The notes under the pieces are model-generated. The model made no database searches. It was not told the origin of the DNA and was given only the letters and a program-made list of their open reading frames with translations. A DNA stretch of 63,805 nt, counting the filler, from Reclinomonas americana ATCC 50394 (Eukaryota): NCBI GenBank assembly GCA_048213135.1. It is 15 parts of 5 records of this genome, joined end to end, with 100 filler letters (N's around TTAATTAATTAA, not from the genome) between each part and the next. Parts side by side here need not be neighbours in the genome. Positions count along the whole stretch, not along the records: positions 45,740 to 50,058 come from PS015808.1; positions 50,159 to 52,812 come from PS015809.1; 13 more parts are not named here. One strand, given 5' to 3'. Each line of letters starts with the position of its first letter. Positions within the stretch are counted from its first letter, which is position 1. Below, piece after piece: positions 48,801 through 52,645 of this stretch. The translations under genes and the position numbers were made by a program.

Positions 48801-51800
48801 GGCGCATCAGTTGACGCAACAAATGGTGCAGGCGTACACGGCGCTCAATCTGGTCGGCCGCAACTCACCGCAGGTGCTGGAGACCGCCCTCGCCGATCCC
48901 AGTCTCTTCCAGGTGTGCCACGCACCCTGTTGCCGCTGCCAATCACTGTGCTCGTCTGTTGCTGTAACTTGAGTGTGTATATCGGATCCAGACGCTGTTG
49001 CTGCCGCTGCAAGTGCAATCGGCCGACATCCATACGCAAGTGCTGCGCCTCATCACCGTCTGCGCATCGCGCAAGCCGCTTGTGCCGCATCTGGTCTCCT
49101 CCGGCGCTCTGTACCACTGCATCGCGCTGCTGTGTGCTCAGGGTGTGCGCTCCGAGTCGCTGGTCATGGTATTCGACCTGTTCTCTGGCCTGCTGCCGAA
49201 TCAGTCGAGCGTGGTGGCGCAATTTGTGCGCTACGGTGGCTTCCTCATGGCACTGTACGCGCTCTCTGGCGGACTCACCTCGGCCGACGTTGCGTACGAC
49301 GAGCGTGAACAAATGCTGAGTCTACATTCCCCCTCACAATTTGTGCGACATGTAGGAGGTACGCCGCGCGGCCGCCACGACACTGTCGCGGGCCTTGACG
49401 AATCCAGAAGTCGGTGGAGAAGTGCAGGACTACTTGCTTCGGTGCGCGCTTGTGTTCTTTTGGTTTGCGTGCACGTGCTCTGACACTGTGCCCTTTGCAG
49501 CTTCTTCCCGCAACGCATGGTGACGGTGATTCGTGATTCCGCCGGCTCCAGCACTCAGGCATTCGATGGAGTTTCGTCGACTCTTTGTCTTCTATGCAGT
49601 TATTGTGCTCGCTCGCGTTGACCTCGTGTACGCCACTGCAGTACCAAGAGGCGCCCGACATGATCTGGAATGAGAATCTGCGCCAGGAGCTCAAGGTCGA
49701 GTTGCGCCAGCTCATCGGCCAGTTTGAGAACAGGTGTGTGCGTGTTAGCGAGCGAGTGGGAGTGACGTGCGTCTCAGACTCAAGCCATTCGCATGTTGCA
49801 GTCGCCGTGGTGGGTCGCCCGACTTCCTCCTCCCCGAAGGCTACCAAGTCCGCTACCAATCGCTGCAGCGGGAGCTTGTGGTACGTCAACTCTTGGTTGT
49901 CATTTGGTCAAGACAATGTTCTAATCGCTTGCGTCGCTTTGCAGGTTGGAGGCATTTTCGTGCGCCACTACAATGCACAGCCGAATTTCCCCATTAGCAA
50001 CGTCGAGCTGTTTGTGCAAGGCATCATGGTCAAGGTGTGTGCGTGTGTGTGTGTGTGTNNNNNNNNNNNNNNNNNNNNNNNNNNNNNNNNNNNNNNNNNN
50101 NNTTAATTAATTAANNNNNNNNNNNNNNNNNNNNNNNNNNNNNNNNNNNNNNNNNNNNGTGTGTGTGTGTGTGTGTGTGTGTGTGTGTGTGTGTGTGTGT
50201 GTGTGTGTGTGTGTGTGTGTGTGTGTGTGTGTGTGTGTGTGTGTGTGTGTGTGTGTGTGTGTGTGTGTGTGTGTGTGTGTGTGTGTGTGTGTGTGTGTGT
50301 GGTTGAGATGCCATCATTGTGGCCACACAGCTGCTGACTATACTGTCGCGCTTGCAGCTGTGCGAGGCACAGAGCATGAATGCTCAGGAGGTGGTCGACC
50401 TGATGCAAGCGCTCACCAACGTGTTCAACCTCAATCCGTCGGCAGTGGAATTGCCGGCTGTCACACAGCGACTGGGAGCGATTGTCGGCTTGCTCACTCG
50501 CACGTTTCGTTCGCGTCAAGAGTCTTTTATCTGCCTTGTTTCTCACCGCCTTTCGTCGGTACAGCGACAACCACATGCTGCCGAAGTACGTGGTGCAGGC
50601 GCTCGATCAGTGTGGCAAGGGTGCCACTGCCGTTCGAGCGTTTGCGCAGGACACGGCGCTGTTGACTGTGTTCTTGCAGGTTCGCCATGCGTGGTGTGAT
50701 TTGCGCCGCGGTGCTTCCTTTCTTCCTCACTAGCATGCGCTTGCTTTGCCACAGGCCTTGCCGAGATGGCAGGACTACTTGGAGCAGTTGCTGTCGACGC
50801 TGACGAGCATCACGTACAAGGCGCCGGAGACCGTGTCCATTATTCATGTGCGCATTAGTGCAGTGGGGGTTCTACACTGGGTGGTCATCGCTCACTGCTC
50901 CCCTCCACTGCAGAACACGGGCGGCACTGCCATTCTCATTGATATCCTGCGAGGCACTCGGCCGCAAAGTGTAAAGACCAAGGCGGCTCAGATTTTGAAA
51001 AAGATGGCTGCCGATCCCAGGTATCAATATCATGCGTGTGGCTTGCTGTGCGTCCTCCACACCTAACCCTCTTGCCGTCAGTGTGGGCGCGTCGGTCAAT
51101 GCGGCCTTGCAGCAATCGGGAGTGTGGCAGCAGTACTCGGATGTTCCTGTCGCCTCAGTGGTCAGCGTGTCCGGCACTGGGTCCAGCAGCAGTGGCTTCG
51201 GAACCATGGCCGCGTCGTCAGCAGCGGCGGCGCCGGCGCCAGACACGCGGCGACACACTGTCGGCGCGGGCCTCGGACCAGTGCCTGTGGTCGGTGGTGG
51301 CGGTTTTGGGTGAGTCATATCGTGATGATCTCTTTCGTCTCCTCTTTTCAAGTTACTGAAATCGTGGACCGACAGCTCGACGGGGGCGACCGGTGCCAGT
51401 GGATTCGGTGGCAGCTCGAATCTGCCTCCTCTGCCTTCCAGTGGTGGACTTCCACCCATGGGAGGTGGTCTGCCGCCAATGGCAGGTGCCGGCGGCTTGC
51501 CACCGATGCAATTCTCACCGCAACAACCACCAGCCGCACCGCCTGTTGCGTCTCGCACACTGTGTGTTTGTCCATTTGTGAGAATTTGCTGACAAGCGTA
51601 TCGATGCAGCGGCCTGCATCAATGGCCTATGCTGCGCCTCTGCCGGCCTTTAATACGACGCCTGCGCCGCCACCCATGTCGTCCATGATGCCCCCAATGC
51701 AGCCTCCGCAGCTTCCTCCACCGCAGCAGCAGCAACAGCCGGCGTTTGTCTTGCCCGGACTTGCACCACCCACCGGCATTCCGCCCATGACGGGTGGCGG

Positions 51801-52645
51801 TATGATGGGCAACGCAGCACCGCCACCACCGCCACCGCCGATGATGTCTGCAATGGCGGGTCAGCCGCAGCCGGTGCGCGTGCTCCCCGTGGCACCAGCT
51901 CCTGCTGCCACCGCCCCTGCCCCGGTCTTTGGTGCCCCACCTGGCCAACCGCAGCCTGTGCGACTGCCGATGCCACCACCGCCGCCGAGTGCAGCAGCGG
52001 CAGCGCCACCGGCACCTCCACCACGCTCGAGCATGTCACTGCCTCCGGTTCCACCACCACAGGCCGGAGCACCTCCACCACCACCACCACCGCCTCCACC
52101 ACCACCGCCACCACCACCAGGGTTTGTTGATCGACCGACATGCACTGGAAGAGAGAAAAGCTGACTTGCTACTTGTCTTGAAATGCAGCGGTGCGCCACC
52201 ACCACCCCCGCCACCGCCACCACCCCCACCTGGAGGCGCACCAATGCCCCCTCCACCAGGCGGTGCCGGTCGCGGAGCGCTCTTGGCCTCCATTCGTGGC
52301 GGAGCGAAGCTCAAGAAAGTCGCGGTTTGTAATGCATCAGGAGGACAGGAAGAGAGTCCCTCCATTGCTCACTGCTTCCCGTCTACGCACAGCCACCACC
52401 CGAGCGACCACCCCCCGGACGGGTACGCGCCTAGTCATCTGCCCCGCCCGTATGACCCGTATCCTGCCTGACCAATAACTCGTACACAGGGAGGAAGCGG
52501 CAGTGGAGCCAGCAGCGCAGCAGGCGGATCAGGAGGAGGAGCAGGCGGAGGAGGAGGACGCGGACCTCCAGCAGGCGGCGGCGGCGGCATGATGGGCGAA
52601 ATGGCCGCCGCACTGGCAGCTCGTCGCAACAAAACCGGCCAATGA
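42846..52645 (+). CDS. RME-8/DNAJC13 (GRV2)-like protein without a J domain, with polyproline, WH2 and VASP-like C-terminus (5' partial, >30 exons)
   Basis: Four IWN-type repeats (VIWND ~45118, VIWNQ ~47176, VIWTE ~48422, MIWNE ~49660), each followed by a Y/H...EL/xx(I/V)G..(Y/F)(L/V)-type motif; AWNSEDFEVHYNSLSDELRVGEYYL; RYLP..F..DTPSVIW. Tail GRGALLASIRGGAKLKKV...GGGGMMGEMAAALAARRNK*. Introns checked by hand are phase-consistent. Confidence 0.85.

Follow-up and report, generated by a model that had tools for sequence, protein, structure and literature searches.

A predicted J-less relative of RME-8/DNAJC13 with a putative Ena/VASP-like actin-handling tail in Reclinomonas americana

Analysis of a 63,805-nucleotide stretch of DNA from Reclinomonas americana ATCC 50394 (GenBank assembly GCA_048213135.1; referred to here as the window, along which all positions are counted) pointed to a plus-strand gene spanning about 42.8-52.6 kb. 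This gene probably encodes a J-less, divergent relative of RME-8/DNAJC13 in which an IWN-repeat body is continued by an Ena/VASP-like actin-handling tail, for which an action dependent on clustering is proposed. At least 2,318 residues of the protein could be modelled, with three assembly gaps interrupting the gene. As predicted from DNA alone, this combination is most likely a genuine, new domain architecture.

Membership of the body in the RME-8 family is supported in silico by four IWN repeats and by a profile match to the end of Pfam RME-8_N (PF19432), bearing out the identity that had originally been predicted. A motif search of the modelled coding frame of the plus strand placed IWN1 (VIWND) at 45121-45129, IWN2 (VIWNQ) at 47179-47187, IWN3 at 48425-48433, where VIWTE presents IWT instead of IWN, and IWN4 (MIWNE) at 49663-49671. 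When exons were scanned one by one, two RME-8_N matches lay above the cut-off (34.7 and 32.8 bits), covering profile positions 786-817 of 818 on 45742-46203 (E 3.1e-8) and positions 786-815 on 45766-45900 (E 8.3e-9). A weak colinear match to positions 743-777 in the N-terminal half (E 0.097) fell below the cut-off, and positions 1-742 were not matched in the exon-by-exon scan, the recognisable part of the profile being its last 75 or so of 818 positions. RME-8/DNAJC13 bears an N-terminal PH-like, PI(3)P-binding domain. In the search for such a PH-like or lipid-binding head, the 11 ORF pieces lying upstream gave no family match at E≤10; the 5' end of the gene may lie in the assembly gap at 42688-42787. 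The endosome targeting originally proposed gained no support here.

The gene was modelled by dynamic programming, using codon usage learned from the body and from WD40 genes nearby; a model maximising ORF length was dropped, since it followed wrong frames. In this manner, the N-terminal half, which includes an IWN motif, was assigned eight predicted exons at low confidence (42843-45199), while the central and C-terminal helical body, identified by the codon-usage model together with Pfam RME-8_N and the IWN motifs, was assigned 15 predicted exons, the introns between them measuring 61-92 nt (45784-50058). The final four body exons follow at 50307-50503, 50565-50679, 50755-50847 and 50914-51020, all on the plus strand. 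The modelled coding sequence of about 2,318 codons is free of stops in all three segments, and intron signals are intact throughout. Upstream, a sybindin-like gene ends at 41723, and the 5' end of the present gene lies in or near assembly gaps, of which the others are at 45640-45739 and 50059-50158.

Canonical RME-8 contains a central DnaJ domain with an HPD triad, with two IWN repeats on each side. In the gene considered here, the interval between IWN2 and IWN3, where the J domain is found in canonical RME-8, extends on the plus strand from 47188 to 48424 and is fully assembled, containing no N. None of the 78 plus-strand ORF pieces of the gene matched DnaJ at E≤0.01, nor did any of the seven pieces across 45926-48787 at E≤10, and the HPD tripeptide was absent from every plus-strand frame of 41724-52645. 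In silico support was thus obtained for a predicted RME-8 relative without a J domain at the position usual for the family. The original prediction had spoken of a chaperone module swapped for direct actin binding; both the absence of the J domain and the presence of an actin-type tail were borne out, while a replacement event goes beyond these two facts.

Examination of the 3' part of the gene agreed with the proposed phase-consistent splicing of the IWN body to the Pro-rich tail. Eight plus-strand exons (50755-50847, 50914-51020, 51082-51309, 51376-51544, 51610-52121, 52189-52324, 52393-52422 and 52490-52645) are predicted to be spliced in phase to yield 476 codons and a TGA, with no internal stops. 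The seven introns between them (66, 61, 66, 65, 67, 68 and 67 nt) are all of the GT-AG type. The bounds previously assigned to the tail correspond to the acceptor of the fourth exon (51376) and the last base of the stop codon (52645). The tail donors (GTTGCGT, GTTTGT and GTGAGT) and the lengths of the tail introns match those of the 23 introns modelled in the body of the gene, and a branch-like CTNA motif singles out the chosen intron, from among phase-consistent GT-AG pairs of 58-76 nt, in four of the five tail junctions. GC content is 69% in the tail exons, 50% in the tail introns and 45% in the 3' flank. The codon-usage model scored the Pro-rich exons negatively, as expected from their composition, such that coding potential offers no independent support for the tail. 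Within the body, the intron at 50848-50913 (66 nt) is in frame and stop-free, and the reading frame would survive its retention. Two further arrangements of this region were rejected. For a minus-strand poly-Gly gene across the tail, no Pfam family was matched on eight minus-strand ORFs (50.5-52.7 kb), and the splice signals are those of the plus strand. As for additional 3' exons reached by bypassing the stop, what lies beyond it was 45% GC and showed nothing coding-like by eye, though the gap at 52813 is only 168 nt downstream.

The body meets the tail in a junction exon (51082-51309, plus strand), within which the end of the body (containing SGVWQQYSD) runs, with no stop between, into a Gly/Ser/Ala-rich linker (containing SSSSGFGT and, further on, GGGGF). 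The start of this exon may resemble the C-terminus of canonical RME-8, a likeness that forms no part of the evidence. Codon log-odds for the exon were +8.6 in the frame used, as opposed to -7.9 and -6.8 in the other two frames, and an unanchored codon-usage model likewise spliced the intron at 51021-51081 and entered the junction exon from the body in that frame. The junction exon also contains an in-frame ATG (51206-51208) in a strong start context (ACCATGG), in line with the presence of two transcription units or of an internal promoter. In that event, an RME-8-like protein would end at 51311-51313, and a separate Pro-rich WH2 protein of some 300-370 residues, possibly a verprolin/WIP-like or headless VASP-like monomer binder, would start downstream, either at ATG 51206 or at the ATG that comes first in exon 51376-51544. 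In the modelled tail, methionine first occurs at residues 43, 105 and 112, which would suit such a protein, as would the effect of retaining the intron at 51310-51375 that links body to tail, namely an immediate stop at 51311-51313, since a TGA lies within the donor site. Close gene packing is, moreover, possible, given that one WD40 reading frame stops at 35938 and the next opens at 36016, 78 nt further on, a spacing of less than 100 nt. Still, we consider two separate units to be rather unlikely. Since the frame stays open from the body as far as ATG 51206, starting there would give no more than an isoform of this gene. The linking intron (66 nt, plus strand; GTGAGT to CAG), the only one of four phase-consistent pairs (58-76 nt) to show a branch-like motif, has the best donor consensus in the whole gene and is of modal length, and its acceptor leads in phase into the downstream frame. 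Finally, the first ATG of exon 51376-51544 comes after 27 Gly/Ser/Pro-rich codons that include an SGFG-type motif, and this type of Gly/Ser motif is present on both sides of the linking intron. Were two genes nonetheless involved, an ordinary small WH2 protein beside a divergent, J-less RME-8 relative would remain.

It was also considered whether the union of body and tail could stem from a chimeric contig, the draft assembly being very fragmented, or, alternatively, from a decaying pseudogene copy. The window contains 35 runs of N with artificial TTAATTAATTAA linkers, three gaps fall within the gene, and neither a protein search with the junction exon nor metagenome scans with body exons gave a match to the locus. 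However, the body-tail junction lies in continuous sequence, within the single gap-free contig at 50159-52812 and at least 900 nt from the nearest gap, and, as described above, the modelled codons are stop-free and the intron signals intact. An artefact of either kind is accordingly very improbable.

The tail of the single predicted gene product comprises the 334 residues encoded downstream of exon 51082-51309, including 109 prolines, with runs of 7, 5, 16 and 12 that are each preceded by A or M. The Pro-rich exons 51376-51544 and 51610-52121 (plus strand, together spanning 51376-52121) encode three GLPPM repeats followed by the runs of 7, 5 and 16 prolines. They are joined across the intron at 51545-51609, whose unusual donor, GTTGCGT, is also used by four body introns. 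At the DNA level, the tracts that encode polyproline consist of imperfect repeats of the CCA trinucleotide. In the runs of 16 and 12, all nine departures from CCA fall at third codon positions, a pattern that is partly circular, since the runs were defined by reading codons as proline.

The following exon (52189-52324, plus strand) encodes the run of 12 prolines and then GRGALLASIRGGAKLKKV (52268-52321), which was recognised as Pfam WH2 (PF02205; E 1.1e-8; 34.9 bits, the cut-off being 23.1; profile positions 1-22 of 28) at exactly the position originally given for it. The motif is near consensus and includes the KLKK basic element. Among solved structures, its best relatives are the WH2 repeats of N-WASP (3m3n_W, E 5.2e-7; 2vcp_D, E 3.9e-5), with the VASP GAB peptide (2pbd_V) and the WIP peptide (2a41_C) reaching only E=1 against the WH2 exon. 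A 30-nt micro-exon (52393-52422, plus strand) encoding PPPERPPPGR comes next, flanked by introns of 68 and 67 nt; skipping it, which would create one 165-nt intron, keeps the frame. The last exon (52490-52645, plus strand) encodes a Gly-rich linker, the FAB-like stretch GGGGMMGEMAAALAARRNKT (52577-52636), the residues GQ and the TGA (52643-52645). The predicted C-terminus, RRNK before the stop, needs correction, as the sequence instead ends in AALAARRNKTGQ.

Comparison of GGGGMMGEMAAALAARRNKT with one published reference sequence, residues 259-278 of human VASP as printed in PMC10340426, revealed 13 of 20 positions to be identical, with an ungapped BLOSUM62 score of 61. This score was equalled by none of 5,000 composition-preserving shuffles, be it of the entire tail or of just the last exon. 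As judged in silico, both the WH2 and the FAB-like matches exceed chance. At the same time, the FAB-like motif in the last exon was matched by no Pfam family above cut-off and by nothing in the PDB, nor did that exon match VASP_tetra. With 44 residues separating the WH2 from the FAB-like motif, the order polyproline, WH2, linker and FAB-like end, taken together with the identity to the VASP FAB, is consistent with the Ena/VASP EVH2 layout that had been suggested. Two absences noted at the outset likewise held. There are no Trp and two Asp+Glu in the last 334 residues, and hence no acidic-Trp (Arp2/3) motif, and the frame stops two residues past the FAB-like stretch, leaving a tetramerising coiled coil no room.

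A fused protein could, however, carry such a tail without its being an actin-assembly machine. The tail might instead be an expanded disordered regulatory or adaptor segment in which the Pro tracts recruit SH3, WW, EVH1 or profilin proteins, with the WH2 merely binding or sensing G-actin or representing a low-complexity by-product of repeat expansion. The composition of the tail, in which Pro makes up 28%, Gly 17% and Ala 15%, is in keeping with this, as are its trinucleotide repeats, the absence of an oligomerisation domain, the lack of Pfam or PDB support for the FAB-like motif in its own right and the autoinhibitory role ascribed to the 45-residue tail of human DNAJC13 in excerpts of bioRxiv 10.1101/2024.12.19.629517. 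Yet, a near-consensus WH2 with its basic element, and an EVH2-type succession of polyproline, WH2, linker and FAB-like motif, would be hard to obtain by repeat expansion alone, and the 410-residue modelled C-terminal part contains no YLT, the motif found in the human regulatory tail. We therefore regard a purely adaptor-type tail as unlikely.

Relatives of the gene were also sought. No homologues were found with the IWN3, junction or RME-8_N-end exons among proteins of up to 2,000 residues, the modelled protein being of at least 2,318. Four protein matches to the IWN3 exon (E 4.8e-6 to 1.8e-4) were judged to be spurious, these being repeat-rich, surface-type and bacterial-looking, with an LTWTDNC-type repeat. 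Metagenome scans with two body exons returned no confirmed match, and two body exons were likewise unmatched in the PDB. In the ESM Atlas, the last exon scored 0.77-0.79 to unnamed fungal clusters, and nothing usable was matched by a body exon. An RME-8 body with a WH2/FAB-like tail was not described in the literature searched, in keeping with the suggestion that the architecture is possibly undescribed.

In the preferred reading, the exons would be joined into one mRNA, with a single intron-rich protist gene encoding a divergent RME-8/DNAJC13 relative that keeps the helical IWN-repeat body of this endosomal scaffold and lacks its J domain. Some 334 disordered residues would stand in place of a short tail like the human one. 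The proline tracts would engage profilin or SH3-type ligands, the WH2 would bind G-actin, and the last motif, amphipathic-basic in character and placed at the extreme C-terminus, would bind F-actin. As the tetramerisation domain is missing, VASP-type activity would require clustering; the scaffold could concentrate many tails on a membrane, with filaments being tethered or fed only when the tails are clustered.

A more far-reaching version can be offered tentatively, as possible rather than probable. A protist lineage may have remodelled a J-less RME-8 paralogue such that, anchored to a membrane, it polymerises or tethers actin in the manner of Ena/VASP, an EVH2-type module (polyPro, GAB and FAB) having been grafted C-terminally by exon gain and endosomal clustering or oligomerisation replacing tetramerisation, such that endosomal actin would be built or held directly and not through WASH. 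In animals, RME-8/DNAJC13 acts on endosomal actin indirectly, binding the WASH subunit FAM21 among others and regulating WASH (excerpts of bioRxiv 10.1101/2024.12.19.629517). If real, a natural fusion of RME-8 with WH2 and FAB motifs would be an independent evolutionary pointer to scaffold-actin coupling, and would offer a ready-made test of EVH2-type motifs displayed on a membrane-bound scaffold without a tetramerisation domain.

Of the known systems, RME-8/DNAJC13, the endosomal J-domain co-chaperone termed GRV2 in plants, shares with the predicted protein the very large size of the helical scaffold, the four IWN repeats, the position of the RME-8_N end just after IWN1 and a disordered C-terminus, as in human DNAJC13. 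The four repeats of RME-8/DNAJC13 are spread through the protein, according to excerpts of PMC9642905. By contrast, the present gene has neither a J domain nor an HPD between IWN2 and IWN3, and the N-terminal 740 or so positions of RME-8_N and the PH-like head are unrecognisable in it. Moreover, its tail of about 334 residues carries WH2 and FAB-like motifs, whereas that of human DNAJC13 comprises 45 disordered residues, described as a negative regulator of endosome binding (excerpts of bioRxiv 10.1101/2024.12.19.629517).

The WASP family (WASP, WAVE and WASH) shares with the predicted protein a family-specific N-terminal part, a Pro-rich region and a WH2, which here best matches the N-WASP repeats; the family layout is given as a specific head, a Pro-rich region and VCA in excerpts of PMC3298513. 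Unlike these proteins, the present one has no central/acidic region and no Trp in its last 334 residues, and no Arp2/3-activating module is evident.

Ena/VASP proteins consist of EVH1, a Pro-rich region and then EVH2, made up of GAB, FAB and a tetramerisation domain. The predicted protein differs in that no EVH1/WH1 is present (no WH1 match on 78 and 11 plus-strand ORF pieces of the gene), with the RME-8-like body occupying the place of the targeting domain, and in that the tetramerisation coiled coil is missing. Its linker is 44 residues long, as compared to 18 in human VASP (excerpts of PMC3034019), and in sequence its WH2 has a closer match in N-WASP (E 5.2e-7) than in the VASP GAB (E=1). 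Because monomers and dimers of VASP gave no detectable F-actin binding by TIRF under conditions in which tetramers bound, as reported in excerpts of PMC3003327, the present tail alone may bind actin weakly, and the originally suggested role as an elongation factor gained no support. What the two share, in the same order, is a set of Pro tracts followed by a G-actin site of the WH2 type, including a basic element like KLKK/KLRK, then a linker and lastly a FAB-like motif.

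The 3' exons of the RME-8-like gene were rebuilt by hand and then mechanically checked. This yielded eight plus-strand exons (50755-50847, 50914-51020, 51082-51309, 51376-51544, 51610-52121, 52189-52324, 52393-52422 and 52490-52645) that splice in phase to give an uninterrupted reading frame of 476 codons closed by TGA. All seven introns between them are of the GT-AG type (66, 61, 66, 65, 67, 68 and 67 nt, respectively), in agreement with the phase-consistent splicing of an RME-8-like body into a Pro-rich tail put forward in the original prediction, although this splicing is itself predicted. 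The coordinates of that prediction proved exact, with the acceptor at 51376, the WH2 motif at 52268-52321 and the stop codon at 52643-52645. The C-terminus, by contrast, had been given as …RRNK and actually reads …AALAARRNKTGQ.

At the five tail junctions, phase-consistent GT-AG pairs of 40-200 nt number 23, 30, 46, 13 and 6, with 4, 1, 5, 3 and 1 of these, respectively, falling within the genome-typical 58-76 nt. A CTNA branch-like motif is unique to the chosen intron among the 58-76 nt candidates at four of the five junctions; at the remaining one (52325-52392), use of another donor, 6 nt farther upstream, would remove two residues. In the upstream body, a dynamic-programming gene model relying on codon usage (trained on the WD40 genes of the window and a few confident exons) placed 23 introns, whose lengths span 56-92 nt and mostly lie at 61-75 nt, with unusual yet recurrent donors (GTTGCGT four times, GTTTGT/GTTTGC and GTGAC/GTGCG). 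Donors of this same set are found in the tail introns as well (GTGAGT, GTTGCGT, GTTTGT twice and GTACGC). GC content is 69% in the tail exons, 50% in the tail introns and 45% in the 3' flank, with a contrast in the same direction being seen in the body (60% vs 54%).

Across 45922-52489, GTTGCGT serves as donor five times and GTTTGT/GTTTGC four times overall, while intron lengths throughout the gene are very narrowly distributed and a CTNAC-like motif lies some 20-30 nt before the AG. This donor and length pattern could represent a lineage signature and offer a gene-finding prior for the genome. One candidate intron, 50848-50913 (66 nt), is itself in frame and stop-free, such that spliced and retained forms both keep the frame; retention, if alternative, would lengthen the body's final helical portion by 22 residues.

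The body-tail junction lies within continuous sequence flanked by gaps at 50158 and 52813. When run unanchored, the codon model spliced out 51021-51081 and entered the junction exon (51082-51309) in the frame reading …AADPSVGASVNAALQQSGVWQQYSD…, for which the codon log-odds are +8.6, as compared to -7.9 and -6.8 in the other two frames. The junction exon then continues as a stop-free Gly/Ser/Ala linker up to the donor GG|GTGAGT, and the next exon, 66 nt on, opens in phase with STGATGASGFGGSS…, where an SGFG-type motif appears again, as it does twice just before the intron. It seems rather probable that body and tail form a genuine fused gene, whose product would be an RME-8-like scaffold lacking the J domain and bearing an EVH2-like, putatively actin-binding tail. 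The main rival, in which a small WH2 protein is encoded separately or initiated internally, is considered unlikely, yet several features speak for it. Were the 66-nt linking intron retained, a TGA inside the donor would end the body protein at 51313, and an in-frame ATG in the junction exon (51206-51208; ACCATGG context) could initiate translation of a tail protein, either separate or an isoform, the next in-frame ATG being tail residue 105. Moreover, neighbouring WD40 frames lie close together, with the stop at 35938 being only 78 nt from the opening of the next frame at 36016. Use of ATG 51206 as an internal start could yield a stand-alone Pro-rich/WH2 isoform of ~368 residues.

In the predicted fused gene, the tail following the junction exon comprises 334 residues, including 109 Pro, no Trp and only two Asp plus Glu. 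No VCA-type acidic-Trp element is present in the tail, as originally noted. Three GLPPM repeats are followed by four proline runs (7, 5, 16 and 12 residues), all of them with Ala or Met at the preceding position, then by the WH2 motif (Pfam E 1.1e-8), a 44-residue Pro/Gly linker and the FAB-like motif GGGGMMGEMAAALAARRNKT. The stop follows GQ directly after this motif, leaving no tetramerisation domain, again as predicted. The best PDB matches of the WH2 motif are N-WASP WH2 repeats (3m3n_W, E 5.2e-7; 2vcp_D, E 3.9e-5), as opposed to E=1 for each of the VASP polyPro-GAB peptide 2pbd_V and the WIP WH2 peptide 2a41_C. The FAB-like motif is without a Pfam or PDB match of its own, yet matches residues 259-278 of human VASP (PMC10340426) identically at 13 positions out of 20, and at 9 out of 16 when the Gly run is excluded. 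Its score was not reached by any of 5000 shuffles, either of the whole tail or of only the last exon. Against a coding tail, the Pro-rich exons score negatively in the codon-usage model, Pro codons being rare in the set on which it was trained, and the long proline runs consist of imperfect CCA trinucleotide repeats. All nine departures from CCA in the 16- and 12-proline runs occur at third codon positions; coding constraint would produce this pattern, although such reasoning is to some extent circular.

Examination of the body revealed a match to Pfam RME-8_N (PF19432) at 45766-45900, covering profile positions 786-815 of 818 (E 8.3e-9; 34.7 bits, above the curated cut-off), while the IWN1 region before it is matched weakly, and in colinear order, by profile positions 743-777 (E 0.097). 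The modelled frames carry four IWN-type motifs: at 45121, 47179, 48425 (reading IWT) and 49663. The RME-8 N-terminal region up to IWN2 is reported to be poorly conserved across eukaryotes (Norris et al.). In canonical RME-8, a DnaJ domain lies between IWN2 and IWN3. Here, this interval is free of assembly gaps, but DnaJ was matched by none of the 78 ORF pieces scanned at E<=0.01, nor by any of seven in a more permissive scan at E<=10, and the plus-strand frames of 41724-52645 are all free of an HPD tripeptide. Together, the RME-8_N match, the IWN motifs and the lack of DnaJ and HPD identify the gene, as judged from its sequence, as a J-less RME-8 relative. The proposed absence of the chaperone module is thereby borne out at the sequence level. 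No recognisable PH-like PI(3)P-binding head was found, in a model whose 5' end is uncertain due to the gap at 42688-42787. Endosomal targeting, as originally proposed, can thus be inferred solely through family resemblance. Outside the three gaps, the model amounts to ~2318 residues. Searches with individual exons, among them the IWN3, junction and RME-8_N-end exons, returned no homologues. In the open-access PMC and bioRxiv literature, no description of RME-8 combined with WH2 was found and no J-less RME-8 paralogue was described among the matches listed. The fused gene would be a new domain combination of known parts.

The window is nuclear DNA from an intron-rich eukaryote, evidently a protist. 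It contains 35 N runs, 24 of exactly 44 N and paired around an artificial TTAATTAATTAA six-frame-stop linker, while (CA)n or (GA)n microsatellites adjoin many of the gaps; as such, gap sizes are arbitrary and gap-crossing genes incomplete. Genes recognised around the RME-8-like gene include those for RhoGAP, UbiA prenyltransferase, PIGA and NUBPL. On the 5' side, the boundary is set by a sybindin-like (TRAPP subunit) gene, whose C-terminal end is at 41514-41723 (plus strand; E 2.3e-8); from there to the gap at 42688, a stretch of 1 kb, the codon-usage gene model found no coding signal. A tandem plus-strand array at 34637-40809 holds four intron-less WD40 beta-propeller paralogues (34637-35938, 36016-37176, 37180-38448 and 39388-40809), each closed by a similar conserved non-WD C-terminal segment, with less than 100 nt between reading frames. 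A truncated copy (38558-38893) is directly followed by a tandem repeat (38878-39409; 73-nt unit, 7.2 copies, 91% matches) in which all three plus-strand frames are open. An M36 fungalysin-type metallopeptidase with an inserted PA domain is encoded by at least two exons at 55847-57541 (plus strand; Peptidase_M36 E 2.1e-34; PA E 4.6e-13), and an 848-codon plus-strand ORF at 4878-7421 is without a Pfam family at E<=1e-5.

As to function, the WH2 motif would be expected to bind G-actin, the proline tracts to bind profilin-actin or SH3/WW partners, and the C-terminal FAB-like motif to contact actin filaments. In the single-molecule work reported in PMC3003327, F-actin interaction of monomeric or dimeric VASP was undetected, while that of the tetramer was strong in the same conditions, and VASP clustered on beads is reported to become processive (PMC3034019). 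Given these reports, a tail present once per polypeptide would be expected to act only at high local copy number, with tails possibly being concentrated by scaffold oligomerisation or membrane coating. PI(3)P binding by human DNAJC13 reportedly needs oligomerisation of its PH-like domain (bioRxiv 10.1101/2024.12.19.629517). According to the same preprint, the 45-residue human DNAJC13 tail is autoinhibitory, in line with a more modest reading, under which the present tail would serve as an expanded region with a regulatory or adaptor role; the YLT motif of the human tail is, however, missing here. Overall, the observation originally made is confirmed and its interpretation partly supported. Motif order and the VASP-like FAB match together give the Pro-rich plus EVH2 layout of Ena/VASP, as described in PMC3034019, less the tetramerisation domain, with the RME-8-like scaffold occupying the place of EVH1.
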